Source of the DNA: Waddliaceae bacterium
GTDB lineage: Bacteria > Chlamydiota > Chlamydiia > Chlamydiales > SLFE01
Assembly: GCA_963771045.1 (NCBI GenBank)
Contig: CAVYRW010000004.1
Coordinates: 928,001-992,000, forward strand
Direction of reading: 5' to 3'
DNA: 64,000 nt
Of this stretch, positions 30,878 through 50,074 are shown piece after piece; the first letter of the stretch is position 1, and every line of letters begins with the position of its first letter. The notes beneath the pieces are model-generated. The model had not been told where the DNA came from. It ran no database searches and was given only the letters and a program-made list of their open reading frames with translations. Position numbers and translations under genes: made by a program.

Positions 30878-33709
30878 TTAAATTGGCGGAGCGCTGGTAA
30901 TAACCCCTGCCTTTTCCAGCATCTTTTCAGCCCCAAACTCTGTTAGCAGGAATTGTGTCCCTGTAATTAGCCAGGCCTTTTGCAAATCCTTATCATTAAT
31001 CAAGTCGTTAAGACTGTTATAAAGTTTGTCGTCTGCAATGATTTGTCTGTTAACAATTTTGCAAAAATGGCTGATCAGTTTTTCTGGTGTCAGGTGTCTA
31101 AAAAAGGCTTTGTAGACTTCTTTAAATGAGCGCTTGATCAACGTATCTGTAATAAGGTCTGTGTGCGCGTCAAAAATGAGTTGATGTTTCAGTCCTAGAC
31201 TTTTACCGATAAAATTTTTCAGATATGTGGTTTGAGAAGCCAGCTCTCCAGTTGAGGGTTTTTTGCCTGTCATTTCAATGACAAAGTCAGATTTTGTAGA
31301 CAAAATATCGTGAATGACCGTTTGAAGAACACTGCGGACAGCCTCACTTTCATTGGAAATGGTATAAAGGGACCCCTGTGACTTCAGTGGAAGACCATGA
31401 AAGGCATAAGAGATTCCTCTTTGGCTGATTAAAGCTAGAGTCTGAATAAGGTGTTTATAAAATGTTTCATATTCCAGCTTTCTGAGATAATCAATGATCC
31501 AGGAAAATTGGTAGGCTTTAATTGAGACTTGTTTCGTTTGATTAAGCAGGTCAAATAATGACCTGTTTTCTTTCAATCTCTTTTGTATGATTGACAAAGG
31601 GAACCCAAAAATGTTTTGAAACTGCTTATCGTCAAATGGGCAATTTTCAATCATTTCATCAAGGACTTTAGAGTTGATCCTTTTAGGTAGATGTTTGCTT
31701 GTCGGCAGTTTGGAAACTTGCGAGAAAGCCTTGGTATTTAACATGAGTCCCTTCGGAGATGGGGTGAGATTTATTGAAGTTTGTTCATGTTGATTTTGTG
31801 TTAATCGACTGAATACCGAATACATGTTCTTGGAAGAGGCTGGCTTAAGAGTATCAATTATATGCTTAAGAGCTCTTTGGATTATCGGGTCCTTGTCACG
31901 AAGTTTAAGAAATTCACGGTTATGGAAAATATATTGAGAAAGAAAATAAACTTCATTCTTATTTTCTAAAGTTGCAAGCTTAAAATTGCATATCGAAAGA
32001 AATTTACTTTTAAAGTGTTTTTTACGAGAGTGCTTGATTTTCAATGCCTCATCGACTATTTGGAAAATTATTTTTATTTCCTTGAAACCACAATCACCCA
32101 AGATAAAAGGGATCGCATGTTTAAGAATTCTTTTGTCAATATCTTGTACTTGTAAAAATTGCGACAGCTTGAGAATTAACGCTAGGTTGCAGTGGTTTAA
32201 ATATGACGTTTTTAAATCAATTGCCAAATTAACAATTTTTATTCTTTCCTCTTCCTCTTCTAGAGCTCTTAAGTTAAAAAAAAGATGATCTATTGTCATT
32301 ATGCCAATAGGATTTTTTTCCAATGCTAATAGTGGTTTTGCCAGATAGGCTGATTCCTTGCGTTCTTTGGGATCTTCGATTACTGCTAATGTCCTGCAAA
32401 GGTACCTTATGTCATTAACATTCATTTCGGGTGTTTTTAGTTCATTTGTTAGATTGACAATTTGCTGTCTTTCTTCTCTATTTTTGATATTTGCCAAAAA
32501 TTTCATAAAAAATTGCAGAACAAGAAATTGCATCTCTGGAGTTTTTAAAGAAATGACCTGGTCTGTAATTTCTCTAATTTCATCTGCATCTTCAATATTA
32601 TAAAATGCCTGATGAATCGTTTTTATTGCATTAGCAGGAAGATCCGATAGCTGCAAGGAGCTTATCACGCTTGTATATATCCTACGTTTTTGGGTATCTT
32701 CGATTTCAGCCAAATCTTGAAGAATCATTTCTACATGGCAAGGATACATTTTTGGTGTTTTTAAACAATTTGCTAGATTGGCTATTTCCTTGCGCTCCTT
32801 GGGATCTTCGATTTTTATCAGATTTTTCAGAATTGTCATCCAGGTGCTATCCCAATTTTCTGTGATTTTTAAAGAATTGAAGAGATCAACACACTCTTTT
32901 CGTTCCTCAGTGTTTTTGAGTTGTGCTAATGTCTTAATAAAACTTGAAATATCCCAACTATCTGCGCCTGATGTTTTTAAAGAATTGATTATCTCAAGAA
33001 ATTCTATTCGTTCCTTAGTGTTTTTGAGTTGTGCTAATGTTTTAATAATACTTGGAATATCCCAATTATCCATGCCTGATGTTTTTAAAGAATTGATTAT
33101 CTCAAGAAATTCTATTCGTTCCTTAGTGTTTTTGAGTTGTGCTAATGTTTTAATAATACTTGGAATATCCCAATTATCCATGCCTGATGTTTTTAAAGAA
33201 TTGATTATCTCAAGAAATTCTATTCGTTCCTTAGTGTTTTTGAGTTGTGCTAATGTTTTAATAATACTTGGAATATCCCAATTATCCATGCCTGATGTTG
33301 TTAAAGACTTTGTTAATTTGACTATTTTTCCTCGCAGCTTTGAATCTTTTATCGCTGCCAGAGCATGCCCAATGTTTCCTAAATCAACGCCGTTTGCTCC
33401 TGAAGTTTTTAAAGACTTTGTCTGGTTGACAATTTCTCTATAGTTGCCTCTATCCAAAAGCGTTATCATCTTTATAAGATATTCAATGCTTGATTCGGAT
33501 TCGTTTTCATTGACGAGAATTTTTACTGAATTAAAGAGTTCTTTGAACCGTTTATTGAATAGAGTTCTCTCTTCCGGCAACGCCTTTTCAAGGCGCTCTG
33601 CATGTAAAAAATTATTGACAACTTTGGTGATTTTATCGTTAAGTTCACTGTTGGTTTCTTTGCGATGAGTACTTGAGTGCAATTGACTTTTTTCAGTAAT
33701 TGGTTGCAT
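30878..33709 (-). CDS. large helical-repeat protein, candidate secreted effector
   Basis: 943-aa AT-rich ORF with about 10-12 36-aa repeats beginning LKT. Confidence 0.8.
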   Translation of the reverse strand: MQPITEKSQLHSSTHRKETNSELNDKITKVVNNFLHAERLEKALPEERTLFNKRFKELFNSVKILVNENESESSIEYLIKMITLLDRGNYREIVNQTKSLKTSGANGVDLGNIGHALAAIKDSKLRGKIVKLTKSLTTSGMDNWDIPSIIKTLAQLKNTKERIEFLEIINSLKTSGMDNWDIPSIIKTLAQLKNTKERIEFLEIINSLKTSGMDNWDIPSIIKTLAQLKNTKERIEFLEIINSLKTSGADSWDISSFIKTLAQLKNTEERKECVDLFNSLKITENWDSTWMTILKNLIKIEDPKERKEIANLANCLKTPKMYPCHVEMILQDLAEIEDTQKRRIYTSVISSLQLSDLPANAIKTIHQAFYNIEDADEIREITDQVISLKTPEMQFLVLQFFMKFLANIKNREERQQIVNLTNELKTPEMNVNDIRYLCRTLAVIEDPKERKESAYLAKPLLALEKNPIGIMTIDHLFFNLRALEEEEERIKIVNLAIDLKTSYLNHCNLALILKLSQFLQVQDIDKRILKHAIPFILGDCGFKEIKIIFQIVDEALKIKHSRKKHFKSKFLSICNFKLATLENKNEVYFLSQYIFHNREFLKLRDKDPIIQRALKHIIDTLKPASSKNMYSVFSRLTQNQHEQTSINLTPSPKGLMLNTKAFSQVSKLPTSKHLPKRINSKVLDEMIENCPFDDKQFQNIFGFPLSIIQKRLKENRSLFDLLNQTKQVSIKAYQFSWIIDYLRKLEYETFYKHLIQTLALISQRGISYAFHGLPLKSQGSLYTISNESEAVRSVLQTVIHDILSTKSDFVIEMTGKKPSTGELASQTTYLKNFIGKSLGLKHQLIFDAHTDLITDTLIKRSFKEVYKAFFRHLTPEKLISHFCKIVNRQIIADDKLYNSLNDLINDKDLQKAWLITGTQFLLTEFGAEKMLEKAGVITSAPPI
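32966..33299. repeat. three identical 108-bp tandem units plus 10 nt
   Basis: unit GCCTGATGTTTTTAAAGAATTG... starts at 32966, 33074 and 33182, with a partial copy at 33290. Confidence 0.95.
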
Positions 33710-33838: not shown

Positions 33839-34906
33839 ATGCTGCAGCCTTTTTTGGAACTATTTCTTTCTTCAGGGTCAATCATCAGTCTCGACCATGA
33901 ACGTTTGCTTATCGGATTCGGCGAAAGAGTATGGATGAAAGAGATAGAGGATGAGTCGAGGCCCGCTTTTTATTTTCCCGATTTTTTTTTGGAGACAAAT
34001 GCCCCTTGGTTTCAGCAGGAGTTTTGCTTTGAAGTGAGCGCAGCTTCTTTTTTGGAAGAGCTTTGCCATAGAGCCGACCACTCCTGTTCGCTGATGTGGA
34101 CGCCTCCTGACTGCAGCGTATTTCAATGGGGCTTTAATGATCTTAAAAAAAGATTTTCTCAAGGAATTTTATCCAAAGGGGTCCCTTACGTTTTTGAAAC
34201 GTCAAAAGATGCCGTTGGGTCTTCTCAGATTCATCATTTCCTTGTGAGTTTACTTCGCTTCGCTTTGATTCATCCTGTCTATTGTTATGGTTTTTGGGAG
34301 GATAGCGAAGGAATTCTCGGAGCCTCTCCCGAACTTTTATTTAAGATGGAGAAGAGCAAAATTCCTAAGTTGAAGACTGTCGCTTGCGCCGGGACTTTGG
34401 GGCGGCAGGAAACAAGAGAAGCTTTTAAAAACGATCCAAAAGAACTCGACGAGCATGCACAGGTGATTGAGGGAATTAGGGAGTCGCTAACGCCGTTTGG
34501 AAAGGTGAACGTCGGAAAGATGGAAACCCTTGATCTGGGTTCTCTGGTTCATTTATTGACGCCTATTGAGGTTGAATTAAATGGGCACTATGATTACGAA
34601 GCTGTTGTCAAAGCCCTGCATCCAACTCCCGCATTGGGAGCATTCCCCAGAAAGGAGGGTGGTGGGTGGCTTTTAGACTACTGCCAAAAAGCCAAAAGAG
34701 GACGCTATGGAGCTCCTGTCGGATTCGTCCGGGGAGGAGGCGATGAGGCAGGGTTTTATGTTGCAATACGAGGAATGCAGTGGAATAAGGAGGGAATTTC
34801 CATAGGGGCCGGTTGCGGCGTGGTTCCGCAAAGCGATTTTGAGAGGGAATGGGAGGAGGTTAGTCGAAAGATTCGGTCGGTCAAGGAGGTCTTTTCTCTT
34901 GTTTGA
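33839..34906 (+). CDS. menF: isochorismate synthase
   Basis: GASPELL, ACAGT, KELDEH, LHPTPALG, RGRYGAP, VAIR and AGCGVV. Confidence 0.85.
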   Translation: MLQPFLELFLSSGSIISLDHERLLIGFGERVWMKEIEDESRPAFYFPDFFLETNAPWFQQEFCFEVSAASFLEELCHRADHSCSLMWTPPDCSVFQWGFNDLKKRFSQGILSKGVPYVFETSKDAVGSSQIHHFLVSLLRFALIHPVYCYGFWEDSEGILGASPELLFKMEKSKIPKLKTVACAGTLGRQETREAFKNDPKELDEHAQVIEGIRESLTPFGKVNVGKMETLDLGSLVHLLTPIEVELNGHYDYEAVVKALHPTPALGAFPRKEGGGWLLDYCQKAKRGRYGAPVGFVRGGGDEAGFYVAIRGMQWNKEGISIGAGCGVVPQSDFEREWEEVSRKIRSVKEVFSLV

Positions 34907-36449
34907 ACAATGGCTGGGGCAAATTCTGCAGGAGATTGTTAAGCGAGGTGTGGAAGAGTTCTGTGTTTGCCCCGGCAAACGGAATGCGCCGTTGATCCAG
35001 GCTCTTGCCCAGTATCCTGAACTTGAGCAGCATCATTGGTATGAAGAGAGGTCGGCGGCTTTTTTTGCTTTGGGAAGGGCGAGGCGGACCGGCCGGCCTG
35101 TCGCTGTTGTGACCACAAGCGGAACCGCGGCTGGCGAGCTTCTTCCCGCCGCGATGGAAGCGCATTATTCGGGGGCTGCACTGCTATTAATAACGGCCGA
35201 CCGGCCGAGGAGATTTCGAGGATCCGGGGCTCCGCAATCGGCAAATCAAGTGGGAATTTACAGCAATTTTACCTCTTTCGAACAAGATTTGGAAGAGGGA
35301 GAGGCTTGCGGCTTGCAACACTGGAATAAAAGAGATCCTGCCCATCTCAACATTTGTTTCGAAGAACCAAAATCGACATTCGATTGCCGCCTTCCTCCAT
35401 TGAAGAGAGAAAGAGGCTGTTACGCAGCGCCTCTGCCTGTGGACCTGGAGTCTCTGCAGGAATTCCATTCTTTTCTGGAATCCGCCAAGCGCCCTCTTGT
35501 TGCTCTCGGAACGCTTGCCGAGGAGGCAAGACAACCCGTGTTGGATTTTCTGCTCAAATTACAAGCCCCTGTCTACTGTGAAGCGGTGTCGGGATTGAGA
35601 GAGCGGGAGGAGTTGGGAATTCTTAGGGTCCGGGATACTGAAGGATTGTGGGAGCAGCCGATTGATGCAATTTTGCGCATCGGTGGAGTGCCGACATTTC
35701 GCGGCTGGCGCGATTTAGAGGACATGCAAGGAAAAATAGCGGTATGTTCTGTAAGCGAAGCGCCCTTTTCGGGTTTGAGCTGGGGTTCGGCGATCCAGAC
35801 GTCCCTCAAGGATTTTTTCCCAAAAACTGCTGCGGGTAAAACTTTTAAGTGGAGTCCATGCTTTGCCGATCCTACGGAGCTATTTGCTAAGTATCCGAAA
35901 GCCGAGCCTTCCTTAATTCATGAACTTTCCAAAATCATTCCGAAAAACAGCAGAGTTTATCTCGGCAACAGCCTTCCCATAAGAGAATGGGATCTGGCAG
36001 CCGCAGGCAATGCGGCAAGCGATGTCTGGGCCAGTCGGGGACTGAACGGAATCGACGGACAGCTGTCTACATTTTTCGGTCTATGCGACCCTGAAAAGGA
36101 AAATTGGGCTATTGTGGGGGATCTGACAGCCCTCTATGATCTTTCAGCCCCGTGGATTTTATCCGAAATGAGAGATTACAGGGTGAAAATTGTTGTGGTG
36201 AACAATGGGGGAGGGATGATCTTCTCCCGGCTTAAAATGGGAGAGAAGTTTCTCCATAGGCACAGCTATGACTTTTCCCATTTCGCTAAAATGTGGGGGC
36301 TGGGCTATGAGGCGTGGATGTCTGTCCCTAAAACCATTGATTGCCAGCGGCAAAGTTTGATTGAGCTTAAGCCCCATGAACAGGAAACGGAAAAATTTTG
36401 GAGGAGCTATCGAGATTTATGCGCTTCACGGCTTCTTGGGACGGCCTAG
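34899..36449 (+). CDS. menD: SEPHCHC synthase
   Basis: CPGKRNAPL, EERSAAFFALG, TTSGTA, ITADRP, NSLPIR, RGLNGIDG, GDLT..YD and NNGGG; TTG start with SD AAGGAGGT. Confidence 0.92.
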   Translation: MFEQWLGQILQEIVKRGVEEFCVCPGKRNAPLIQALAQYPELEQHHWYEERSAAFFALGRARRTGRPVAVVTTSGTAAGELLPAAMEAHYSGAALLLITADRPRRFRGSGAPQSANQVGIYSNFTSFEQDLEEGEACGLQHWNKRDPAHLNICFEEPKSTFDCRLPPLKRERGCYAAPLPVDLESLQEFHSFLESAKRPLVALGTLAEEARQPVLDFLLKLQAPVYCEAVSGLREREELGILRVRDTEGLWEQPIDAILRIGGVPTFRGWRDLEDMQGKIAVCSVSEAPFSGLSWGSAIQTSLKDFFPKTAAGKTFKWSPCFADPTELFAKYPKAEPSLIHELSKIIPKNSRVYLGNSLPIREWDLAAAGNAASDVWASRGLNGIDGQLSTFFGLCDPEKENWAIVGDLTALYDLSAPWILSEMRDYRVKIVVVNNGGGMIFSRLKMGEKFLHRHSYDFSHFAKMWGLGYEAWMSVPKTIDCQRQSLIELKPHEQETEKFWRSYRDLCASRLLGTA

Positions 36450-37086
36450 CGACTGGTCGTTTTTACCTGAAGCTCATGCCCCCGATCTCTTTTCGGAAGA
36501 ATCGCTAGAGCATGAAAATTTTACCGAATGGGCGAAATGGTTCAACAGGAAAACAGACCACGTCTCACCGAAACTGCTGATCGGGTACTCGCTTGGAGGC
36601 CGGCTGGCGTTGCAGGCGCTTATCGATTGTCCGGAAATGTGGGACGGCGCTGTGATCATTTCTGCTCATCCCGGATTGCTTTCAGGTAAAAAAGAGAGGC
36701 TCGAAAACGACGCCTGCTGGGCAAAACGCTTTATGAACGACTCGTGGGACTGCCTCATGCAGGACTGGAATAGCCAGCCGGTTTTCAAAAATGAACAGCA
36801 TCATCCGGTTCGCCTGGAATCCGACTTTAAACGAAAGAGCTTGGCAAAAGCACTTAGGCAATGGTCGCTGGGCAGGCAGGAAAATTTGCGCGGGGGGCTG
36901 TCCGGACTCAATATCCCGCTGCTTTGGGTATGTGGAAAGCATGATCAAAAACCCGCCCCTCTTTTTCATCCAAAATCCAAAATTTGCATTGCGCCGCAAG
37001 GGGGACATCGATTAGTATGGACACATCAAGCATTGCTCAAAGTGGAAATTAAAAGGTTTAAGGAGTCATTATGCCGGCAGTATTGA
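36376..37086 (+). CDS. menH: SHCHC synthase (alpha/beta hydrolase); start uncertain
   Basis: LHGFLG, GYSLGGR and GGH; position in the men operon. Confidence 0.85.
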
Positions 37087-37901
37087 CAGAAGAATGGACT
37101 GAGGTCAAAACTTACGAAGATATCGAATTTCATCGCATGGGAGCGGTTGCGAAAATCACGATCAACCGTCCTGAGATTCACAACGCTTTTCGTCCTCTGA
37201 CTGTCGATGAAATGCAGGATGCATTTGCTAAGTGCCGCTACGACGATTCGATTGGCGTTGTTGTTCTCGCAGGAAAAGGAAGCCAGGCATTTTGCTCGGG
37301 AGGGGATCAAAGCATTCGCCAGCATGCCGGTTATGTTGACGGCGACGGCATGCCAAGGCTCAACGTGCTCGATTTGCAAAAGCAGATTCGAAATCTTCCT
37401 AAGCCTGTCATTGCGATGGTAGCCGGCTATGCCATCGGCGGGGGGCACGTCCTGCATGTCGTTTGCGATTTGACGATCGCCGCCGACAATGCGGTCTTCG
37501 GCCAGACCGGGCCGAAAGTCGGGTCGTTCGACGGGGGACTGGGAAGCAGCTATCTCGCCCGTATCATCGGCCAGAAGAAAGCGAGGGAGATATGGTTCTT
37601 GTGCCGGCAATATTCGGCCGCAGAAGCTCTTGAAATGGGCCTTGTCAATGTGGTTGTCCCTTTGGAGGATTTGGAAGGCGAAACGCTCAAATGGTGCGAT
37701 GAAATCCTTCAGCACTCTCCTATGGCTCTTCGCTGTTTAAAATCGGCAATGAACGCCGATTGTGATGGGCAGGCAGGGCTCATCGACCTGGCAGGCAATG
37801 CTACGCTGCTTTATTATATGAGCGAAGAGGCAAAAGAGGGGCATTCGGCCTTCAAAGAAAAGCGAAAACCCGATTTTTCAAAATTCAAACGGTATCCTTA
37901 A
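37071..37901 (+). CDS. menB: 1,4-dihydroxy-2-naphthoyl-CoA synthase
   Basis: [22 protein letters not shown] and [12 protein letters not shown]. Confidence 0.96.
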
Positions 37902-37904
37902 AAA

Positions 37905-38801
37905 ATGACCAAATATACAGGGAAGTTTCGTCACTGGATATTGGCTATTCGTCCTAAGACATTGACCGTGGCTTTTGTTTCTGTTTTGGCTGGGACCTCT
38001 TTAGCATGGTCTGTGGTCAGTGTAGATTGGCTGATTGCATTTTTGGCTCTCGTTTGTTCGCTTCTCATACAGGCGGGTGCCAATCTAATCAATGATGCTG
38101 CGGATTTCAAAACAGGGGCAGATACCGAAGAGCGGATTGGATTTCCTCGGGCGGCTCAAATGGGATGGCTATCCTATAAGCAAGTCTACTATGGCGGACT
38201 TGCGGCGTTTGGTCTGGCGTTTCTACTCGGCATCCCGCTTATCATTAAAGGAGGGGTTCTCATACTTTTTCTCCTAATTGTGTCAATCCTGTCTGGCTAC
38301 GGCTATTCGGCGGGCCCCTATCCACTTGCGTATCATGGTCTTGGCGAACTTTTTGTTATGATCTTTTTTGGTTATGTATGTACAACCGTTCCCTATTATT
38401 TGCAAACAGGGGTTATAGATGAAAAAATTCTTTTGGCCGCAACACAAATCGGTATTCTCTCGACACTTCTCATAGCCATTAACAATACAAGGGATATTGA
38501 AGGGGATAAAAAAGCTAATAAAAAGACGCTTGCGGCAACTTATGGACTGAGGTTCGGAAAGCTTGAGATATCTTTCACCTTGCTCATTCCTTTTTTGCTC
38601 AACTTATTATGGGTGTTGATCAAATACCCGGTCGCAGCATTTCTACCCTTGAGCCTCCTACCTCTCGCATCAATCATTGCTCAGGGTATCTGGAAGTTTA
38701 ACCCCGGAAAAATTTATAACGGCTATTTTGTATTGTCAGCATTGTTGCATTTGGTTTTTGGCCTGCTGCTATCGCTGGGATTTATTCTTCAGGTGTTATG
38801 A
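37905..38801 (+). CDS. menA: DHNA polyprenyltransferase
   Basis: RPKTL, NLINDAADF, AYHGLGELFV and NNTRDIEGDKKANKKT. Confidence 0.93.
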   Translation: MTKYTGKFRHWILAIRPKTLTVAFVSVLAGTSLAWSVVSVDWLIAFLALVCSLLIQAGANLINDAADFKTGADTEERIGFPRAAQMGWLSYKQVYYGGLAAFGLAFLLGIPLIIKGGVLILFLLIVSILSGYGYSAGPYPLAYHGLGELFVMIFFGYVCTTVPYYLQTGVIDEKILLAATQIGILSTLLIAINNTRDIEGDKKANKKTLAATYGLRFGKLEISFTLLIPFLLNLLWVLIKYPVAAFLPLSLLPLASIIAQGIWKFNPGKIYNGYFVLSALLHLVFGLLLSLGFILQVL

Positions 38802-39730
38802 GGGAATGGCAGAATTCTGGCAGACCGTTTTTTGGTTCTTTCACCGATCTTTACCATCAAATCTTTTTCCATAACTATCGGCTTTCTAGAAGAAGCGGAG
38901 CTCTATTAAAAGTGATCTTTAGAGATGGTTTGACTGGCTATGGCGACTGCCATCCCTGGCCTGAGCTTGGTGACCTCCCTCTTAAAGAACAACTCAATTG
39001 TCTTGTCGATAATCGGACGACGAAACTCACGAAGCAGTCGTTAAAATTTGCACGAATAGACGCCGAAGGACGCGGCGAGAAAAAGAATTTGCTGCGATCG
39101 CTTAATGTGCCTAAAAGTCATTATCTTTTAATGAGTCTCGGTAAAAATTCGCAAAAAGAGCTTGAACAGGCTTTGAGCGAGGGATTCGAACATTTTAAGG
39201 TGAAATTAGGTGCAAATCTTGTAAAAGAGTTGAAGATTTTGAGTCCAATGCTAGAGACTCCTCGAACTCGCTGGCGTCTTGATTTTAACAATCAACTTAA
39301 GCAATTAACTTTATTGAAAAGTTTAGAAAACGATACAATTGAATTTGTCGAAGATCCCTTTCCTTATGATAAAAGGTGGTATGAATTTCCCTTCGCGATT
39401 GCCTTCGATCGCCAGGAAAATCCTCCAGAAAATGCTTATCAATACAAAATCGTCAAGCCTGCCATTGAGGCAATGATGGAGAGTTGCAAACCTCTTATTG
39501 TCACATCGTACTTGGGTCACCCACTCGGGCAGGCGGCAGACGCCTATGCCGCTGCAAACCTTGCAAAACAATGCGATGTTCGGGTTTGCGGGCTTTTGTC
39601 TCACAGAGTTTACCCTCGCAATTTGTTCAGCGAGCGGCTATCATGGCAGGGACCCGACTGGAAACATCCGGAAGGAACCGGTTTCGGTTTTGATGATTTG
39701 TTAGAGGGGATAAAATGGCATAAGTTATGA
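38798..39730 (+). CDS. menC: o-succinylbenzoate synthase
   Basis: enolase-superfamily KVK, RLDFN, EDP and FD motifs; position in the men operon. Confidence 0.8.
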   Translation: MREWQNSGRPFFGSFTDLYHQIFFHNYRLSRRSGALLKVIFRDGLTGYGDCHPWPELGDLPLKEQLNCLVDNRTTKLTKQSLKFARIDAEGRGEKKNLLRSLNVPKSHYLLMSLGKNSQKELEQALSEGFEHFKVKLGANLVKELKILSPMLETPRTRWRLDFNNQLKQLTLLKSLENDTIEFVEDPFPYDKRWYEFPFAIAFDRQENPPENAYQYKIVKPAIEAMMESCKPLIVTSYLGHPLGQAADAYAAANLAKQCDVRVCGLLSHRVYPRNLFSERLSWQGPDWKHPEGTGFGFDDLLEGIKWHKL

Positions 39731-40827
39731 CTTTTGAATGGAACAGCGATGATACATATGTCTTGATGAATCCTCGAATGCCAGGTAAGGATCTTTATAC
39801 TCACAAACTCCACGACATCGGGCTTAAAGGACATGTTTGGCTGGCTACCTCGGGGACTACCTCTATCAAATGGGTCGCTTTGTCTAAAGAGGCGATTCTC
39901 CACTCGGCACGGTCTGTTGGCGAGCACTTGGCTATGTCGCCTGAGGATATCTGGGTACACGTTCTTCCGGATTTTCATATCGGGGGGCTTGCAATTTGGG
40001 CCAGAACTTTTGTTATGGGCGCCAAAGTTATCGACTTCAAAACCCAATCGAAATGGGATCCCAGCGCTTTTCGCGATTGTCTGGCATCGTCGAACGGCAC
40101 ACTTACATCTCTTGTTCCGGCTCAACTCTACGACCTGGTCTGTCTTCAGCTCGAGGCGCCTCCGGCTTTACGCGTCGTCCTTATCGGGGGAGGGAGGCTT
40201 GACTCCTCTCTTTACTCCAAGGCTATGAATCTTGGATGGAAATGCTTGCCGACTTATGGGATGACTGAAACAGCTTCGCAGGTAGCGACCGCAAAGCCGG
40301 AGAGCAAGGCGGACTTGGAGCTTTTGCCGCATGTGAAAGCAAAAATTGATGACGATGGATTAGTTTGTATAAAATCACCATGCCTCCTGACATGTTATGC
40401 AGAAGTCGGCATCAAAACGGTTATCACCGATCCTAAAAAAAATGGTTGGTTTTGCACTGATGACGTAGGATCAATTAAAGACAAAATAATCAGAGTGATG
40501 GGGCGCAAGTCCGATTTTCTCAAAATCGGTGGTGAAAGTGTTTCTCTCACTCTTCTTGAAAGTCTGTTTGAAACTCTCAAACTTGAATATGGCGTCACAG
40601 AAGATATGGCATTAGTGGCGTTTCCCGATGAGAGGCTCGGTCATGTGATTCACCTGGCCACTACGCACGAATCTCTCAGGCTTTTAACCCTTGTCGAGGA
40701 ATTTCAAAAGAGGGTGCATCCTTTTGAGAGGATTAGGCAAATTCACCGGGTAGCGAAGATTCCAAGAGGACCGTTGAACAAGCTCATCAAGCGCGATTTG
40801 GTTACTTTGATTTCTGCGCCGATATAA
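39727..40827 (+). CDS. menE: o-succinylbenzoate-CoA ligase
   Basis: TSGTT, SLVPAQL, TYGMTETASQ, TDD.G and GRK...KIGGE. Confidence 0.88.
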   Translation: MTFEWNSDDTYVLMNPRMPGKDLYTHKLHDIGLKGHVWLATSGTTSIKWVALSKEAILHSARSVGEHLAMSPEDIWVHVLPDFHIGGLAIWARTFVMGAKVIDFKTQSKWDPSAFRDCLASSNGTLTSLVPAQLYDLVCLQLEAPPALRVVLIGGGRLDSSLYSKAMNLGWKCLPTYGMTETASQVATAKPESKADLELLPHVKAKIDDDGLVCIKSPCLLTCYAEVGIKTVITDPKKNGWFCTDDVGSIKDKIIRVMGRKSDFLKIGGESVSLTLLESLFETLKLEYGVTEDMALVAFPDERLGHVIHLATTHESLRLLTLVEEFQKRVHPFERIRQIHRVAKIPRGPLNKLIKRDLVTLISAPI

Positions 40828-41536
40828 GTGTAGCGATTCCCCCGAAAAGAGGCTTGATTGTCACATGTGTAAAGCCGGTTTTGACTAGATCGTCTGCTAC
40901 GCTGCCTGGCGAAACGAACTCATGAATGCTGTTGCACAGGTATTTGTAGGCTTCTTTATTGGATGTGGCGAGTTTGCCGAGAAGAGGAAGAGCGGTATTG
41001 AGATAAACATGGTGGCCAAAACGAAGAAATCTGTTTTGCGGTCTGGTGAGTTCAAGAATCCCGAAATGACCTCCGGGTTTTAGAATCCTTAAAGTTTCCT
41101 GAAAACATAGGAAAGGATTTTTGATATTACGTATGCCATAGGCTGCAGTTGCGGCATCGATGACATTACTTTCTAGGGGAATCGACTGAGCGTCGGCCTC
41201 AAGATAGTGAATATCGTGGTGATCGATTTTTAGGTTTCGTGCTTTTTCTTGAGCGCAAGAGAGCATTCCCTCGGAAAAATCGAGCATATAAGCGGTAATG
41301 GGATCTTTTTGACGTCGGAGATAAGGAAAAGCAATATCTCCTGTTCCACAGCAAAGATCCAAAATTGTTTTTGGCTTGTTAGCTGAATAAATATTTCGGA
41401 TCAGTGCGCGATTCCACAATCGGTAGGTTTGAAACGAAAGAATGGCGTTGCCCTTTTCGTAATTAACAGCAATATCATTGAACAGCGCCTTGATAGACTC
41501 AGGATTTTGTTTACCATAGGGGAGGGGGCTATTCAT
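40802..41536 (-). CDS. ubiE: demethylmenaquinone methyltransferase (UbiE/MenG)
   Basis: LDLCCGTGD, DFSEGML, YGIRN, RILKPGG and YKYLCNSI; start taken at MNSPL. Confidence 0.92.
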   Translation of the reverse strand: MNSPLPYGKQNPESIKALFNDIAVNYEKGNAILSFQTYRLWNRALIRNIYSANKPKTILDLCCGTGDIAFPYLRRQKDPITAYMLDFSEGMLSCAQEKARNLKIDHHDIHYLEADAQSIPLESNVIDAATAAYGIRNIKNPFLCFQETLRILKPGGHFGILELTRPQNRFLRFGHHVYLNTALPLLGKLATSNKEAYKYLCNSIHEFVSPGSVADDLVKTGFTHVTIKPLFGGIATLISAQKSK

Positions 41537-41753
41537 CTTCAGGCTCTTTCTCTTTTTTTTCTTCTGTTTTTTTGCAGATTTCACAACTGATCTCTCGACC
41601 GCAACGCTCATCGCGGGCTTTATTGGGGTCCATTCCGCATGCTCCCCGAATGATACGCGCCTTGCCGGTGATCAGAAAGCCGATTCCAAGAAGCGTGCAC
41701 GCGACTATAATCACCCCAAAAGCCAGTAAAACTGTGATGACAATAGGATCCAT
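41529..41753 (-). CDS. small membrane protein, NqrM/DUF539-like
   Basis: single TM helix followed by IRGACG...C...CEIC and a charged tail. Confidence 0.6.
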   Translation of the reverse strand: MDPIVITVLLAFGVIIVACTLLGIGFLITGKARIIRGACGMDPNKARDERCGREISCEICKKTEEKKEKEPEDE

Positions 41754-41785
41754 AGTGACCTCATTCACATATTATAACACTTTTT

Positions 41786-44125
41786 CTAATCATAGTCTAC
41801 CCGGCAATGCGGGGTTAAGGGGGTAGCCTGGCAGGTAAGAATTTTACCCATTTCCGCTTCGCTGTCGCTAAGTGCCTGATGCTTATTCATAACAATTTTT
41901 CCCGAGTCAAGCTGGGCTATACAGGTGCTGCAAATGCCTTCTCTGCAGGAAAATGGAGGATTGAGATTTTCCCGGATAGCGGCATCGAGGATGCTTTCGC
42001 CGGCATGGCAGCTAATTTGGGTTTCGCGGCCATCAATTTTCACAGTAATAGCTTTTGTTTCCGTATTTTCTGCTTCCTTTCCCTCGCCGACAATTAATGG
42101 CTCGGCAGCAGCAGCTCCATGAACTTCCTCAAATGGCTCTGCAAGGGAAGTAAATGTTTCCACATGGATATTTTTCTCGGAGATGTTTTTCTTCTTGAGT
42201 GTCTCTTTTACCAAGGAAAGCAGCCCTTGGGGGCCGCAGAGATAATACTCGGCATTGGGCGGACATGTATCTAAAATTTCATTGACTTTTTCGGCATCCA
42301 GCCGCCCGATAACATTTTTTCTGGAAGAGTTGTTGACAGATAGGCTGTGGATGACTGCAAATTTTTGACTGAATGCCTCTTGCAGCTTTTCCAGGTCATT
42401 GCCAAAAATGATCGAGCTGCTGTCGTGATTGGCAAATATGAGTTTGACCTGTTCGACATAAGGCTTTTTGAGCAGTGTGCGGATGAGGGACATAATCGGC
42501 GTGATGCCGCTGCCGCCAGCGAACATTACATGATGAGCAGCATCCGGTTTTGCGATAAATTGTCCGGCAGGGGGAAGAACCAGAACTTCATCGTTTTCCT
42601 TGAGTTGATCGATCAGATCATTGGAAATGAGTCCATTTTTGATTCTTTTTACGGTGATTCTGAGGTGTTTATCTTCTCCGGGATCGCTGGACAGGGAATA
42701 GCAGCGTTTATGCAATTGTCCATCATCTAGCAAGCGAAGCGTGATAAACTGGCCGGGTTTGTAGCTGAATTCGTGCTTCAAATGATGTGGGATTTCGAAA
42801 TAAAAGGAGGCGGCCTCTTGAGTTTCTTCAAGAACTTTAGCTACTTTTAACATATAGTAGCGGTGTAATTTGCCATAATCAGACTGATATTGAAACGATG
42901 AGCAGTCCACATCCAGTTTTTGCGTCCCCATGGCCATCATCTTCATAATTTTCGGAGTAACATATTTTTGGACAAAGGGAAAAATCAAACCTCTGATTTT
43001 TTCAAGAATGGGATTGTGAATGCTAAAAATAGCTTTTCCAAGAAGCCTTTGCATACGGAATATTTTTTTTGCTTCCGTTTTTCTTTTTGTGACAAATTCT
43101 TTAAGGTGATAGCTTCTGACAATGCCGTGATGGCTTTTTAATGTTTGTACGATCAAGGGATGAGCACAAACAGCATCCTGAATGGCTAGCTTGTTGCCTT
43201 GAGCGCCGATAGGCGATGCGATATGAGCGGCATCGCCAATTAGAAGCAGCCCGTCTTTAGCCCATTGCTTGGCAATGGCAATTTTAACATCGAGGTAAGA
43301 GCATTGATCGAAGCTTAAAAGCACTTGCGGCAGTATGTCCTTAAGAATCGGCTTTGTCTCAATGAGGCGTTTGCAGAACGCATCGATTCCTCCTTGTTTA
43401 AGCTCGGGATACTCTCCTTTCGGCAGAATCCAACCGACTCGGATATGTCCTTTTTCTTGAGGGATAAAAACAACCATTCCATGCTGTGAGATCTCAAGGC
43501 CGAGTTGATATTTTTCCGCTTGGGATATCGGGAGATCAAACCAGACAACATCAAATTGATCTTTTGATTTGTGAAGTTCAATTCCGGCAGCGCTGCGAAG
43601 GGTCGAGAATCGCCCGTCGGCTGCGACAACAAGCCTGCTGCTGATCATCTGTTCTTCATTGTCAATTTGAACTTTCACGCCCGACACCATTCCGTTGTCA
43701 AAAGCAAGATCTGCAGCTGGGGTATTGCCAAGAAAGGTAAGGTTGGGAAATTCCGAAGCAAGTTGTATGATTTTTCTTAAAAACGGTCCTTGCTGCATGG
43801 CGAGGGCATAGTTATAAGGTTTGTCCAGTATATTCAAACCAAGCGTTATAAGAGGCTTTTCGTTGTCGGTGATTTTAAACTCATACATTTTGGAATGATC
43901 GACCAATAAAATCTCATCCAAGATACCCATCTGGTCGAAATATTTGACAATAGACGGCTGATAGGCCGGACCTCTGAATTCTCTTTTAAATGATGTGTCG
44001 CGTTCAATCAGGAGAACATCGATTCCGCTCCTTCCCAAAAGATAGCTGAGAACAGCTCCTGCAGGCCCGGCCCCGACAACAATAACGTCGTATTGGGGTT
44101 TTGATGAGGAGCTTTTTTTATTCAT
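41786..44125 (-). CDS. FAD-dependent monooxygenase fused to an FNR-type reductase and a 2Fe-2S ferredoxin
   Basis: GAGPAG, AADGRFS and IGDAAHIASPIGAQG; then PGQF, RCYSLSS, AGGSGITP, YLCGP; then CREGICSTC...C. Confidence 0.88.
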   Translation of the reverse strand: MNKKSSSSKPQYDVIVVGAGPAGAVLSYLLGRSGIDVLLIERDTSFKREFRGPAYQPSIVKYFDQMGILDEILLVDHSKMYEFKITDNEKPLITLGLNILDKPYNYALAMQQGPFLRKIIQLASEFPNLTFLGNTPAADLAFDNGMVSGVKVQIDNEEQMISSRLVVAADGRFSTLRSAAGIELHKSKDQFDVVWFDLPISQAEKYQLGLEISQHGMVVFIPQEKGHIRVGWILPKGEYPELKQGGIDAFCKRLIETKPILKDILPQVLLSFDQCSYLDVKIAIAKQWAKDGLLLIGDAAHIASPIGAQGNKLAIQDAVCAHPLIVQTLKSHHGIVRSYHLKEFVTKRKTEAKKIFRMQRLLGKAIFSIHNPILEKIRGLIFPFVQKYVTPKIMKMMAMGTQKLDVDCSSFQYQSDYGKLHRYYMLKVAKVLEETQEAASFYFEIPHHLKHEFSYKPGQFITLRLLDDGQLHKRCYSLSSDPGEDKHLRITVKRIKNGLISNDLIDQLKENDEVLVLPPAGQFIAKPDAAHHVMFAGGSGITPIMSLIRTLLKKPYVEQVKLIFANHDSSSIIFGNDLEKLQEAFSQKFAVIHSLSVNNSSRKNVIGRLDAEKVNEILDTCPPNAEYYLCGPQGLLSLVKETLKKKNISEKNIHVETFTSLAEPFEEVHGAAAAEPLIVGEGKEAENTETKAITVKIDGRETQISCHAGESILDAAIRENLNPPFSCREGICSTCIAQLDSGKIVMNKHQALSDSEAEMGKILTCQATPLTPHCRVDYD

Positions 44126-46076
44126 TGTTGCTGTCGTCGACTTTGACGGTTTTTTCTTTTGAGCTTTTAGCGCTTTTTTTTAACTCCTTTTTTGGAGCAG
44201 TGATATCGATCCAAATAGGAGAGCTCCATGCCATATGCCCGTCTTCCTGGGTCACTCGTAGATAGTAATAGGCAAAAGGGGTTTGTTTATCCCCCCCTTT
44301 GAGGGAATTTATTTCCAAGGGCGTCATGTCGTCATATTCAAAGTCGGCATGATAATTCTCGGGATGTATTGTGTGGATCACATCTCCGTTTCGAATAATC
44401 TCTATTTTATTGAGGTTTGTGGTTCCGGCGACATAGCCTGAAATGTGCCTGTTGACGAGTAGGCCGGGTTTTTCCGATGTGTCGATTTCGGTTCCCATAA
44501 GCTCTCCGGCAATCGACAGTCCGACAATAATCCTTTGACCTGTCGTTGCGTAGCAGCGGCGGTTGTATAGGGCTTCGAATATTGACTCTTTCGTATGGTT
44601 TTTGGTGAACACCGCAGTAAACCCTGGAGGGTATTGCGTTTGTTCGTGATCAAAAAAATCGTAATAAATCCCGCGGTCATCTAGTCCGCCGGCGACAAAT
44701 CCAAACCGGCAGTTGTTATTGAGGGCATTTTGGATGGATCCTTCGGCCGTTTCAGTGACACCATTTTTTGGGGAGGGGGCAATTGGGCAAGGATTCCCTT
44801 CTTTTTGGGTGCTCTCGGACGACCCCCAGGCATTGTAAATTTCGACAACGCGCTCAAATTCGGGATTCCAGTTTTTAAAATTATATTGATACCCATTTCC
44901 CATGGTAAAAGTCGGTATGGAAAGCATTTCTTTGGGGGAATAGGATTTATAGATTTTATTCAGGGAGTTGTATTTGGTGTCTTTTTTTCTCATGATTTGT
45001 TTTTGTTCTTTGGCAAAGATGAACTGCCGCACTCCTTCTTTTCCCGGCTCTCCTTCCCACTGAAATCCCGAGAAAGTCGAAAATCTGTCTTCCTCGTTAA
45101 ATTCCTGCACATTGCTTGCTATAAGTTTCCAAATTTCATTAGAAGTTTCCTCGGAATTCTGGCTGGGCGAGACGCCGTAGAAGTTGTAGGCCAGCTCATC
45201 TCTAAAGTGCCTGAGGCAGCTTTCAATGTTTTCTGTCGAGTCGACCCTTTCGGATTCTCCATGGAGCGTGCCCCACAAAAGTTGTTCTTCAAGATCGGCA
45301 AAACATTTCATAGGAGGAGAAAAATAAATATTTTGCGTGGACATATTTTTTAGCTGCACAGTGTAGACGCCGGGATCATTAAAATATAGATTGGGGAGAG
45401 TTATATAACCGGTTTCGGGAATAAACAGCTTCCAGCTAAGGTTTTCCCTCAAGTGTTCATGGGTGAGTTCAATGAGCGTGTTTTCGCTGTCAGTTGTGCT
45501 TGTCAGGTTTCCAAACCGGTCTTCAAAACGAATCACGACATCAAACCGTTTATTTTTGGAAACGAAAGAGGGTGTGATAGCTTTTATATTATCGAGCTCG
45601 TTGCCTTTGACATCCATGGAAAAGACTTCGGGATCAGTGAACTTTCCTTTTCCGGCAGGATCGACATAGAGATAAAAAGCCCTGCGCCTTTGCGCGTTGG
45701 CCTGGGCTTGAGTCCCTTTGGGATTCGGCCCCCATTTTTTTTCTTTGGGGTCCCCTACGTAGATAGTCATTGGCTCTCCAGCAGGAACTTTAGCCGGCAG
45801 TTTGAACTGATATTTGGGAATGATATCATTAGCTCCGAAAATTTCTTCCGGGAAAAATGGTTTGTTTTTTCCCACTTTGGCGTATATAACGTTTTCTTCT
45901 GCTTCCATGTCTGTTGCCGGGGCCTCCCAGTCAATAGGCCTGCCGTTGCTCATTATGTCGAACAGCAGCAGCGTTCCCTGAGGGAGCGCGGAAGAGGGGG
46001 TATAAATGAATTTCCAGGTTTTAAATTCCCCAGCATAAGCGACTGGGGGTTCACAAGCACAAATCGACCGGCGCAT
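44118..46076 (-). CDS. DUF3604-type conserved chlamydial protein (CT425-like)
   Basis: WGTLHGES, VEIYNAWG, GFVAGGLD, RRCYATTG and YYYLRV..EDG.MAWSSPIW. Confidence 0.75.
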   Translation of the reverse strand: MRRSICACEPPVAYAGEFKTWKFIYTPSSALPQGTLLLFDIMSNGRPIDWEAPATDMEAEENVIYAKVGKNKPFFPEEIFGANDIIPKYQFKLPAKVPAGEPMTIYVGDPKEKKWGPNPKGTQAQANAQRRRAFYLYVDPAGKGKFTDPEVFSMDVKGNELDNIKAITPSFVSKNKRFDVVIRFEDRFGNLTSTTDSENTLIELTHEHLRENLSWKLFIPETGYITLPNLYFNDPGVYTVQLKNMSTQNIYFSPPMKCFADLEEQLLWGTLHGESERVDSTENIESCLRHFRDELAYNFYGVSPSQNSEETSNEIWKLIASNVQEFNEEDRFSTFSGFQWEGEPGKEGVRQFIFAKEQKQIMRKKDTKYNSLNKIYKSYSPKEMLSIPTFTMGNGYQYNFKNWNPEFERVVEIYNAWGSSESTQKEGNPCPIAPSPKNGVTETAEGSIQNALNNNCRFGFVAGGLDDRGIYYDFFDHEQTQYPPGFTAVFTKNHTKESIFEALYNRRCYATTGQRIIVGLSIAGELMGTEIDTSEKPGLLVNRHISGYVAGTTNLNKIEIIRNGDVIHTIHPENYHADFEYDDMTPLEINSLKGGDKQTPFAYYYLRVTQEDGHMAWSSPIWIDITAPKKELKKSAKSSKEKTVKVDDSNNE

Positions 46077-46124
46077 AGACAATTCTCCAAATCTTCAAAT
46101 AAGAACATTATGACTAAAAAAAGA

Positions 46125-47908: not shown

Positions 47909-48586
47909 ATGAAATATTTTATATTAGTTTTTGCAGTATTACAATTTCATTCGAGCTATGGATCGTTCAGTGATTTTGAAAAGAAATTTTTGCAGCAACC
48001 AGAAAAGCTGGAAGCATGGCATGTATTGTCCGATGAAGTGGATCTATGGACCGATAGAATTGGCATGCCCATAGACGAGAGAATTAAGGAAACTGTAATT
48101 GTCCTCAATCTTATGGGTTTTACAACTAGCGCTTCTTGCGAAGGGCATATTGATTGGGGCTTGCCTTATCCCTGGATCGATTTTGCCGTCAATGATAAAG
48201 AATTCTTCAATATACAAAATGAGCTGATGGAGATCCAGAAGCAAATTAATGGTTATGGCGACTTTAAGGATCTAACTGACGAAGAACTGCAGGAAGTGAG
48301 TAATTTAAACAAGCAACGTTTAGCATTATTTTCGGAGCTTTACCGCAATACCCAAACTAAACTCCTTCCCATCTATGCATTGCTGGAAAAATTCTATTCA
48401 AAGAAAAAGAAGCATTACGATTGTGTTATATGTTTTCCCGACAAATATCTTTCTAGGATGCAAAGTCTTGGGGGACAATGGAAATATGTTCGTACTCCTG
48501 AACAAAAAAAGAATAAGTTAAAAAAGTATCAGGAAGAAATGAGCCAATTCACTGACTTTTTAATCAGGGAGTATTTGCGCCAATAA
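47909..48586 (+). CDS. hypothetical exported protein
   Basis: signal peptide; PIDERIKETV..LN..GF.T..SCEGH block; SD GAGGT. Confidence 0.75.
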   Translation: MKYFILVFAVLQFHSSYGSFSDFEKKFLQQPEKLEAWHVLSDEVDLWTDRIGMPIDERIKETVIVLNLMGFTTSASCEGHIDWGLPYPWIDFAVNDKEFFNIQNELMEIQKQINGYGDFKDLTDEELQEVSNLNKQRLALFSELYRNTQTKLLPIYALLEKFYSKKKKHYDCVICFPDKYLSRMQSLGGQWKYVRTPEQKKNKLKKYQEEMSQFTDFLIREYLRQ

Positions 48587-48589
48587 ATG

Positions 48590-48744
48590 CGGGTTAATCG
48601 ACTTTACTGAAGGAAAGTAGTCATTTTGATTCTCCAAGTCAGCAGCAGAACGTTACCAAGCCATTCAGACGTGCTGACCCGGGAAGTCAACGCTTTTTGA
48701 AATATGGGTAATCGTAGTTTTTTCTATCCTGAGAATTAGACCCG
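48590..48744 (-). ncRNA. candidate structured RNA (6S-like?)
   Basis: 19-bp stem (17 pairs on the minus strand, including G-U) at 48626-48690 plus a possible closing stem CGGGTCTAAT/ATTAACCCG. Confidence 0.2.
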
Positions 48745-48900
48745 TGATTGTAACCTAATCTGAGGCCAATCATCTACAGCTGAAGGTCATCTTTCGATAA
48801 ATTTCCCCTCCGGCATGTCTTAAGACATGCCTCTTGTCAAAATTTTCTCTTTATTCAAAATTCGGGAAATTGTATAATTTTCCAAAAAATAGGTAAGGTA

Positions 48901-49248
48901 ATGCATCCAGATTATTTTAATGACTATGACAGGGGATTAAAATTATATAACAAGAGCAATTATTTTGATGCAGCTATTTGTTATTGGACAGCTTATAACA
49001 AGATTCATCAGATTCCAGGTGGTCAAAGGCCCAGCTTTATGCAGAAGGATCTTACTGAGATCGTCACGGCCCTAATTAGGGCTCAGCTTGGGCTTATCCC
49101 TTCAATAAAGTGTTCCAGGCTACGGGCTCACCAATTAACGGTGATCAAAAAGCTTATTGAGAAAGATATTAAAGAAGAAGAAAAACCCCTCGACCCCTTT
49201 ATTGAAAAAGTTTATTTATATGTAAACAAAGGAGATACTGTTTCATAG
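48901..49248 (+). pseudogene. hypothetical helical (TPR-like) protein truncated by IS1
   Basis: the TAG stop is formed by the IS junction; the frame resumes after the TSD and runs to 50134. Confidence 0.65.
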
Positions 49249-50074
49249 GTGTCCATAACATGTAATGCTCAATTTTTTGAATTGATATTGATTTTCTTGT
49301 GCGTTTTCCTTTGTTTCTAAAACGAATGGAGGACCCAAATGACACCCACTTGTCCTAACTGTAAATCCACCAGTATCAAAAAGAACGGCCATATTCACAG
49401 TGGAAAGCAAAATCATAGGTGTTTGTCTTGTGGAAGGCAATTCGTCATCGATCCTCAGCAAAAAATAATATCAGATGAGACAACATCAAGAGTAAGACAG
49501 GCATTGCTTGAACGCGTTTCTCTCGAAGGTATTTGTAGAATCTTTGACGTCAGCATGCCCTGGCTTTTGAATTTTATGAACAGAATAATCGAAGATCTTC
49601 CAGAAGATTTGAATGCGGATGTCACTGGAGAAGAAGAGTTTGAGGTAGCTATACTTGAGCTTGATGAACAGTGGAGCTATGTAGGAAAGAAAAAAAATCC
49701 AATATGGCTTTGGCTCGCATTTCATTCAGGTACACGACAGGTATTAGCTATGCATGTAGGAAAAAGAAATAAGCAAGCAGCAGAATCCTTATTAGCGAAG
49801 CTCCCCGAGGACTTAAAAAAAAAAGCCGTCTTTTATACGGATAAGTTCTCAATCTACTACGAAGTCCTTCCTTGGGAACAACATCGTCCAGTCGGAAAGG
49901 AGTCAGGTAAGACAAGCTACATTGAGAGATTTAATAACACGCTCAGGCAGCGATGCTCAAGGCTAGTGAGAAAAACCCTTTCATTTTCAAAGAAAATTGA
50001 GAACCATATTGGCATGATAAAATATTTTATATGTGACTATAACCAGAGAAAAGCATTACAAGTTTAGGACTACC
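49248..50074 (+). mobile_element. IS1-family element
   Basis: IRs GGT-GTCCATAACATGTAATGCT and (reverse complement) GGTAGTCCTAAACTTGTAATGCT; 8-bp TSD GTTTCATA at 49240-49247 and 50075-50082. Confidence 0.92.
49339..50067 (+). CDS. IS1 transposase (InsA-InsB in one frame)
   Basis: CPNC...KNG...QNHRCLSC zinc finger; ELDEQWSYV, YTD and IERFNNTLRQR..RLVRKTLSFSK. Confidence 0.92.
   Translation: MTPTCPNCKSTSIKKNGHIHSGKQNHRCLSCGRQFVIDPQQKIISDETTSRVRQALLERVSLEGICRIFDVSMPWLLNFMNRIIEDLPEDLNADVTGEEEFEVAILELDEQWSYVGKKKNPIWLWLAFHSGTRQVLAMHVGKRNKQAAESLLAKLPEDLKKKAVFYTDKFSIYYEVLPWEQHRPVGKESGKTSYIERFNNTLRQRCSRLVRKTLSFSKKIENHIGMIKYFICDYNQRKALQV

Follow-up and report, generated by a model that had tools for sequence, protein, structure and literature searches.

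The 64,000-nucleotide stretch analysed here (the window; positions 928,001 to 992,000 of contig CAVYRW010000004.1, assembly GCA_963771045.1, Waddliaceae bacterium, phylum Chlamydiota) carries one open reading frame (ORF) of 779 amino acids, in which a flavin monooxygenase domain is continued by an FNR-type reductase and a [2Fe-2S] ferredoxin (Table 1). The gene stands between a DUF3604 gene and a small membrane protein gene followed by menG, and this block converges on the menaquinone genes menF to menE. The initial annotation of the window had described the same one-ORF architecture and the same arrangement, and both hold. There is no internal stop, and Pfam finds FAD_binding_3, FAD_binding_6, NAD_binding_1 and Fer2 in the order that had been proposed for an architecture check. 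The start of the fusion overlaps the DUF3604 stop by 8 nucleotides, 32 nucleotides separate its own stop from the ATG (41753) of the cysteine-rich membrane ORF, the stop of the latter overlaps the in-frame ATG of menG (41536), and menG and menE overlap by 26 nucleotides. The flavin motifs of the oxygenase half are GAGPAG (residue 18), DGRFSTLR (170) and GDAAHIASPIGAQGNKLA (297); the reductase half contains RCYSLSS (474), GGSGITP (537), YLCGP (628), CREGICSTC (727) and LTCQA (763). An AlphaFold2 model of the whole protein reached a pLDDT of 85.9 and a pTM of 0.87. Since the GC content of the gene (0.445) equals that of the genome (0.446), there is no sign of a very recent arrival.

Table 1. Features of the fusion gene and its surroundings, in positions of the window.
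Feature	Position	Strand	Basis
Fusion ORF: flavin monooxygenase - FNR - [2Fe-2S] ferredoxin, 779 aa	41786..44125	-	Pfam; at least 32 full-length clusters
PHBH-fold flavin monooxygenase domain, aa 8-414	42884..44104	-	FAD_binding_3 (aa 12-330), E 2.6e-41; structure match
GD motif and altered start of the flavin-contact helix (G310-N311-K312 for G-(M/L/I)-N)	43184..43237	-	Comparison of fused and unfused domains
FNR-type flavin-binding barrel, aa 427-523 (RCYSLSS)	42557..42847	-	Pfam FAD_binding_6
FNR-type NAD(P)H-binding domain, aa 534-639 (GGSGITP, YLCGP)	42209..42526	-	Pfam NAD_binding_1
Linker of about 30 residues, low model confidence, near-invariant E666 and G680	42056..42148	-	Alignment, model
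Plant-type [2Fe-2S] ferredoxin domain; C727, C732, C735 and C765 invariant in 32/32	41819..42043	-	Pfam Fer2 (aa 695-769), alignment
Membrane protein of 74 aa with four Cys, found widely behind chlamydial DUF3604	41529..41753	-	No Pfam/NCBIfam match over cut-off
menG/ubiE methyltransferase	40802..41536	-	NF001244 (232 bits) and TIGR01934 (205 bits), both over cut-off
DUF3604 protein, upstream neighbour	44118..46082	-	Pfam; in 39/41 genomes searched
menF-D-H-B-A-C-E, classical menaquinone cluster	33839..40827	+	menF, menE: Pfam; menB, menA, menC: NCBIfam; menD, menH: sequence/gene order
Promoter-like site TAGACT-17-TATAAT, TG before -10	41771..41799	-	Consensus match only

The fusion is a genuine and conserved architecture. 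In a homologue search with 7994 scored candidates, the best 120 of 367 matches were listed, and among these we counted at least 32 full-length fused clusters (at least 89% of the protein covered) and at least four partial ones. The named full-length members among the matches listed come from metagenome-assembled genomes (MAGs) of Chlamydiia and Chlamydiota, from Ca. Nitronauta litoralis and from one Nitrospinaceae MAG. The checked cofactor motifs of both halves are kept in all 32 full-length members, GxGxxG being present in 29 of them and the remaining three having no N-terminus, while the mean pairwise identity is only about 46% in the oxygenase half and about 42% in the reductase half. The initial annotation had named a stop or frameshift at the junction as the point to look for; position 42884 is crossed by two short-read contigs, which possibly originate from the source study, without any difference or gap. 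An artefact of assembly or a frameshift at the junction is ruled out by these intact contigs and by the number of full-length clusters.

The family is also rare. Among 1.84 billion representatives, a profile search found nine full-length members, all of which were already part of the query alignment, and no further one. The fusion is present in five of the six genomes of the chlamydial family to which the window belongs (the genome without it is 79% complete) and in seven of the 400 scored genomes of the phylum, a scoring from which G035 was left out. A scan of genome contigs with the family alignment, whose motifs are generic, gave one full fusion among the 80 loci listed and is no census; a scan of metagenome contigs with the Nitronauta protein as query gave no match, none of the 1910 matching plasmid records covers 80% of the fusion protein, and there is no RNA run among the listed sequencing runs that contain the sequence. 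Widespread homologues, unlinked to quinone genes and functionally assigned, had been regarded as a threat to the annotation. They are not widespread, and the copies examined outside the family of the window have no men gene within the DNA read. In agreement with the earlier statement that the architecture was not known as characterised, no description of it was found in the literature searched, which consisted mostly of open papers with subscription papers mostly outside, the targeted part covering titles and the starts of abstracts.

Trees were built on thinned sets of 92 rows (reductase halves) and 35 rows (oxygenase domains), with 88 rows in one further tree. All 33 fused reductase halves fall into one branch (support 95, FastTree), together with two rows from other or split proteins and two fragments, which indicates that the pairing is old and has been retained. 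In the oxygenase tree, the fused domains group with unfused proteins from Bacillus, Paenibacillus and haloarchaea in a strongly supported clade (99/97). Related FNR-ferredoxin modules are also fused behind a ferric-reductase-like membrane domain (P0133 and P0149), and P0133 branches beside the Nitrospinae-type fusions, so that the module is reused in other fusions. The copy in G348 (G348:C1, L105:9102-11350) is frameshifted in the reductase half, possibly as a result of a sequencing error.

The C-terminal half shows the layout of PaaE, i.e. an FNR barrel, an NAD domain and a C-terminal four-cysteine ferredoxin, and matches TIGR02160 across the whole model (E 1.7e-83; 280.4 bits, below the cut-off of 420.8). 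Its nearest free relatives among the matches listed are 31-39% identical. It differs from PaaE and KshB reductases in this score, in being fused and in its neighbours, as neither paa nor Rieske oxygenase genes flank the fusion. Folded alone, the half has its best structural match in the reductase-ferredoxin part of full-length CYP116B46 (Z 29.5, rmsd 4.0, 314 residues), and the same holds within the whole-chain model (Z 28.6). The ferredoxin is docked on the FNR part in the model, as in CYP116B46, with the low-confidence linker in between. Modules resembling phthalate dioxygenase reductase (PDR) are fused behind the catalytic domain of self-sufficient CYP116B P450s and of catabolic reductive dehalogenases, in the same order of catalytic domain, reductase and C-terminal [2Fe-2S] domain (PMC7260179; PMC10463259). 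The fusion shares with CYP116B the N-terminal catalytic domain joined to a PDR-like module, but its N half is a flavoprotein and not a P450 heme domain; the acceptor is heme or cobalamin/Fe-S in those enzymes and, as we propose, a second flavin here.

The structural matches of the C half also include FNR-fold flavin reductases (1QFJ, Z 24.1), and the flavin reductase HpaC supports the activity of PqsL from Pseudomonas aeruginosa in the dark (PMC7248105). One could therefore imagine that the reductase half hands free reduced flavin to the oxygenase, as HpaC can do for PqsL, and that the cluster is secondary. However, a pure shuttle would not need the four cluster cysteines, which are invariant in 32/32 members, and we consider this explanation very unlikely.

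The N-terminal half has the PHBH fold across the whole domain and the GxGxxG, DG and GD flavin motifs of class A monooxygenases. Its closest solved relative is the flavin monooxygenase (FMO) of Bacillus niacini (PDB 8UIU/8URC/8URD), with Z 46.4, an rmsd of 2.5 over 399 residues, 31% identity and a sequence match of E 1.4e-53; this enzyme differs from the fusion in that it stands alone. HspB, PnpA and PHBH follow at Z 38-40 (PHBH Z 38). The B. niacini enzyme is said to act in nicotinate breakdown and reportedly uses NADH. The top NCBIfam models are those of the PRK06185 family, all below their cut-offs (262 vs 500, 222 vs 601 and 220 vs 488 bits), and the name PRK06185 does not occur in the literature searched. 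The scores are lower for TIGR01988, the UbiH/UbiF/VisC/COQ6 model (113.5, cut-off 224.65), and for TIGR02032, the GGR model (77.5, cut-off 158.8), so the domain is far nearer to B. niacini FMO and the PRK06185 models than to UbiH/COQ6 or GGR. The second-best Foldseek entry is PqsL, a PHBH-fold enzyme with no intrinsic NAD(P)H activity (PMC7248105); it is, however, an unfused N-hydroxylase of about 20% identity, and VIA-align ties it with many PHBH-fold enzymes.

Ferredoxin-driven archaeal GGRs exist, and GGRs belong to the same fold family as the N-terminal domain (3ATQ, Z 27.9; 3OZ2, Z 31.9). The domain might accordingly be imagined as a GGR/MenJ-type reductase that uses electrons from ferredoxin to saturate a double bond of an isoprenoid. 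The monooxygenase match of the whole-chain model is far better (Z 44.6), the GGR score remains below its cut-off, and YxWxFP, presumably the GGR motif, is absent from the fusion sequence; such a function is highly improbable.

A comparison of 35 fused with 39 unfused sister oxygenase domains (36 unfused for E224) revealed fusion-specific residues that cluster around the flavin, notably K312 (34/35 fused, 0/39 unfused), K281 (31/35 and 0/39) and E224 (32/35 and 0/36). The start of the flavin-contact helix, GM(L)N in class A enzymes, contacts flavin N1/O2 through Leu299-Asn300 in PHBH (PMC3546652); it reads G-N-K in 34 of the 35 fused domains, and B. niacini FMO also deviates (G-S-T). K312 takes the position of PHBH Asn300, adjoining flavin N1/O2 (PMC3546652), where 46 of 56 distant relatives have N. 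Its positive charge could favour an anionic flavin semiquinone. By a plain numbering offset of +12, K281 would correspond to PHBH Arg269, which binds NADPH (PMC6315137); B. niacini FMO has an arginine there. Judged from its position, K281 could be there for NAD(P)H or for a ferredoxin.

Clues to the substrate come from the nearest structure, as B. niacini FMO was solved with (2,6)DHP bound (PDB title), and from gene contexts outside the menG unit. The fusion gene of G322 lies directly behind a TetA-like gene of the major facilitator superfamily (MFS), and the frameshifted gene of G348 directly behind a DHA2-like MFS gene; both genomes possess MqnA/D-family genes and have no menB match. The closest unfused Bacillus relatives are TetR-monooxygenase pairs on plasmids, with the monooxygenase gene behind the TetR gene (two of two examined). 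On two Nitrospinae-type contigs of 4-5 kb, there is a branching enzyme gene on one and no close neighbour on the other. The efflux-type neighbours and the pairing of the unfused relatives with TetR, although known from few loci, point to the handling of small aromatic compounds.

According to the initial annotation, class A enzymes need no reductase and are reduced by NAD(P)H directly. This is too strong: COQ6, a class A hydroxylase, shows no activity when supplied with NAD(P)H and receives its electrons by way of FDXR/FDX2 (PMC7615680), and in the dark PqsL does not use NAD(P)H either (PMC7248105). COQ6 with FDXR and FDX2 (Coq6, Arh1 and Yah1) follows the same logic that we propose for the fusion, namely a class A hydroxylase fed by a [2Fe-2S] ferredoxin pair (PMC7615680). 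However, that system consists of three separate proteins and serves the ubiquinone pathway, whereas the fusion is one chain with an FNR-type reductase and does not reach the UbiH/COQ6 cut-off.

We estimate a probability of roughly 50% that the fusion protein is a self-sufficient, ferredoxin-fed oxygenase with a small aromatic substrate. This is plausible because the fusion is conserved, the cofactor motifs are intact, COQ6 provides a precedent and the module order is that of CYP116B. The wiring of COQ6 and CYP116B with a flavin as acceptor seems to be the most economical reading: the protein is proposed to work like COQ6 with its ferredoxin pair and to be built like CYP116B, and is a member of neither group. 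The initial annotation had already suggested a self-sufficient, ferredoxin-fed flavoenzyme, and this part of it gains from the comparison; the quinone substrate considered there does not. Electrons would pass from NAD(P)H via the FNR flavin to the [2Fe-2S] cluster, as in the known families, and from there in two one-electron steps to the FAD of the oxygenase. A swing of the ferredoxin domain on the linker would help this transfer, during which Lys312 would stabilise the anionic flavin semiquinone. The reduced oxygenase flavin would then react with O2 and hydroxylate a probably small phenolic or pyridinol ring, in detoxification or breakdown rather than in menaquinone synthesis.

Several observations weigh against this proposal. 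The ferredoxin sits on the FNR part in the model, so that electrons would have to cover a long distance to the oxygenase flavin unless the domain moves. Inside their strong clade, the fused oxygenase domains are monophyletic with a support of only 52/63, and common descent may account for the fusion-specific residues. In four plasmid loci with unfused relatives, the PLSDB tables, which are incomplete, list no reductase next to the oxygenase gene. As to the substrate, the efflux link comes from two genomes, both of the same family, and an identity of 31% to B. niacini FMO does not fix the substrate. Finally, K281 would fit direct NAD(P)H use, and the copy in G016 (G016:C44:1786-3441, L015) keeps the oxygenase domain and ends at about residue 550.

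The last two points would also suit a protein with two activities, whose oxygenase takes NAD(P)H directly, with the basic K281 at the putative NADPH-contact site, and can persist alone as in G016. The FNR-ferredoxin part would then feed another enzyme, e.g. a membrane fatty-acid desaturase, or re-reduce a quinoid substrate or product. Two FA_desaturase genes are present in the genome, and no reductase ORF was recognised in their 3.7-3.8 kb loci from the printed N-termini. However, the genome also has a free ferredoxin, and that both Chlamydiae and Nitrospinae have kept the fusion, with residues specific to it at the flavin, is more easily explained by internal coupling. We therefore regard two independent activities as unlikely.

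The position beside menG deserves a separate consideration, since the initial annotation had proposed a quinone modifier in an operon with this gene. Three relatives (G001, G003 and G004) share the gene order rny - DUF3604 - fusion - small ORF - menG, a fourth (G002) shares it in part, and six of eight metagenome loci have the same context as far as their DNA reaches. In a survey of 30 DUF3604 loci, drawn from 39 genomes with a DUF3604 match, the fusion is next to DUF3604 in only four, all from the chlamydial family of the window. Among the 26 other loci, DUF3604 is directly followed by the small cysteine-rich ORF, without any fusion, in seven (five by BLAST, one by pattern, one by eye), and menG comes after it in two and an mqnE-like gene in four (one tested with a hidden Markov model, three by eye). 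CT426-CT428 is such an operon in Chlamydiaceae (PMC3937554). As the unit of small ORF and quinone gene exists without the fusion, the latter has most likely been inserted into an older unit of DUF3604, small cysteine-rich protein and quinone gene, and that it now lies beside menaquinone (vitamin K) genes is probably due to chance, through an insertion in a single family. The promoter-like site behind the fusion could allow the small ORF and menG to be transcribed on their own. In a comparison of 20 loci, in four of which the script did not locate the small ORF, a TAnAAT lies ahead of this ORF at 9 of 11 loci with the fusion and at 0 of 5 without it, the genomes being related and two of the 11 sequences identical.

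It could nevertheless be that the fusion is a ferredoxin-fed modifier of menaquinone or a precursor, in the manner of COQ6, and owes its place in the menG unit to this role. The order fusion - small ORF - menG is kept in all members of the family and family-like contigs that have downstream DNA (G000-G004; metagenome loci L142-L144, L146, L147), quinone genes often come after DUF3604 in Chlamydiae, as the counts above and CT426-CT428 illustrate, and of the other chlamydial carriers and near relatives, four were tested and all have menB or MqnA/D-family genes. However, there is no men gene in the 10-20 kb read around the copies in G322, G348 and G016, nor on the two Nitrospinae-type contigs, so that the neighbourhood check supports a link with menG within the family of the window and not elsewhere. 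Moreover, the block of small ORF and quinone gene occurs without the fusion in the seven loci mentioned and has its own promoter-like site in the window, the UbiH-type and GGR scores lie below their cut-offs, the classical men cluster is already complete, and no UbiB over cut-off is present in the genome (90.6% complete; other ubi genes were outside the search). The second UbiA-family gene of the genome looks like a heme O synthase. The proposed quinone modifier is thus weakly supported at best, and we rate it as distinctly unlikely. That the fusion would be the first class A monooxygenase from nature to be connected, within one polypeptide, to an FNR-ferredoxin chain of its own, and that the family of the window took it into the menG unit for the synthesis of a hydroxylated menaquinone not yet described, is more improbable still.

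It is poorly understood how a PHBH-fold flavin receives two single electrons from a ferredoxin, as it does in human COQ6 with separate partners, the ferredoxin pair of COQ6 being an adrenodoxin-type system. If our proposal of a self-sufficient oxygenase is true, a soluble single chain of oxygenase, reductase and ferredoxin would make docking and semiquinone chemistry directly testable. The fusion would then be the covalent counterpart of COQ6 with its ferredoxin and reductase, and the flavin counterpart of the self-sufficient CYP116B biocatalysts. The locus also advises caution, since the menG neighbourhood reflects insertion into an older gene unit and is an unsafe guide to function.

The small cysteine-rich protein after DUF3604 is a one-helix protein of many chlamydial lineages (including L111, L116, L118, L130, L132, L134 and L135), and no Pfam or NCBIfam family model scores any member tested. 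The nearest named Atlas cluster is NqrM (0.83, 25% of members), a weak lead only; NqrM is a maturation protein for the [2Fe-2S] cluster of Na+-NQR (PMC12174285), and a search of the genome with PF04400 (NqrM) gave no match. The protein could be a chlamydial NqrM or could serve the quinone genes that accompany it. In the chlamydial genomes searched, the gene ahead of DUF3604 is usually rny or one for a hemolysin-like CBS protein, and quinone genes often follow; the DUF3604 product weakly matches CehA/McbA metallohydrolases.

Some further observations concern the genome and the rest of the window. Beside a transposase lies a second monooxygenase gene of the FAD_binding_3 type, broken into two frames (G000:C4:1177709-1178760; L149, L151). 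On a 65-kb contig, a membrane-anchored Rieske protein (G000:C3:51921-52094, L148) is followed by a cytochrome b-like ORF, i.e. a bc-type complex, which is to our knowledge unusual for chlamydiae; the contig is possibly mis-binned. Positions 30878-33709 of the window (minus strand) encode a low-GC protein of 943 aa with several near-identical repeats of about 35 residues and no Pfam family over cut-off. A paralogue of 40% identity occupies the same place in G001, and the protein looks lineage-specific. Between rny and the CBS-domain gene (47909-50067), there are two ORFs with no recognised function and an IS1-family transposase on the opposite strand. This interval holds one ORF in G001 and none in G003 and G004, which marks it as a recent insertion site.

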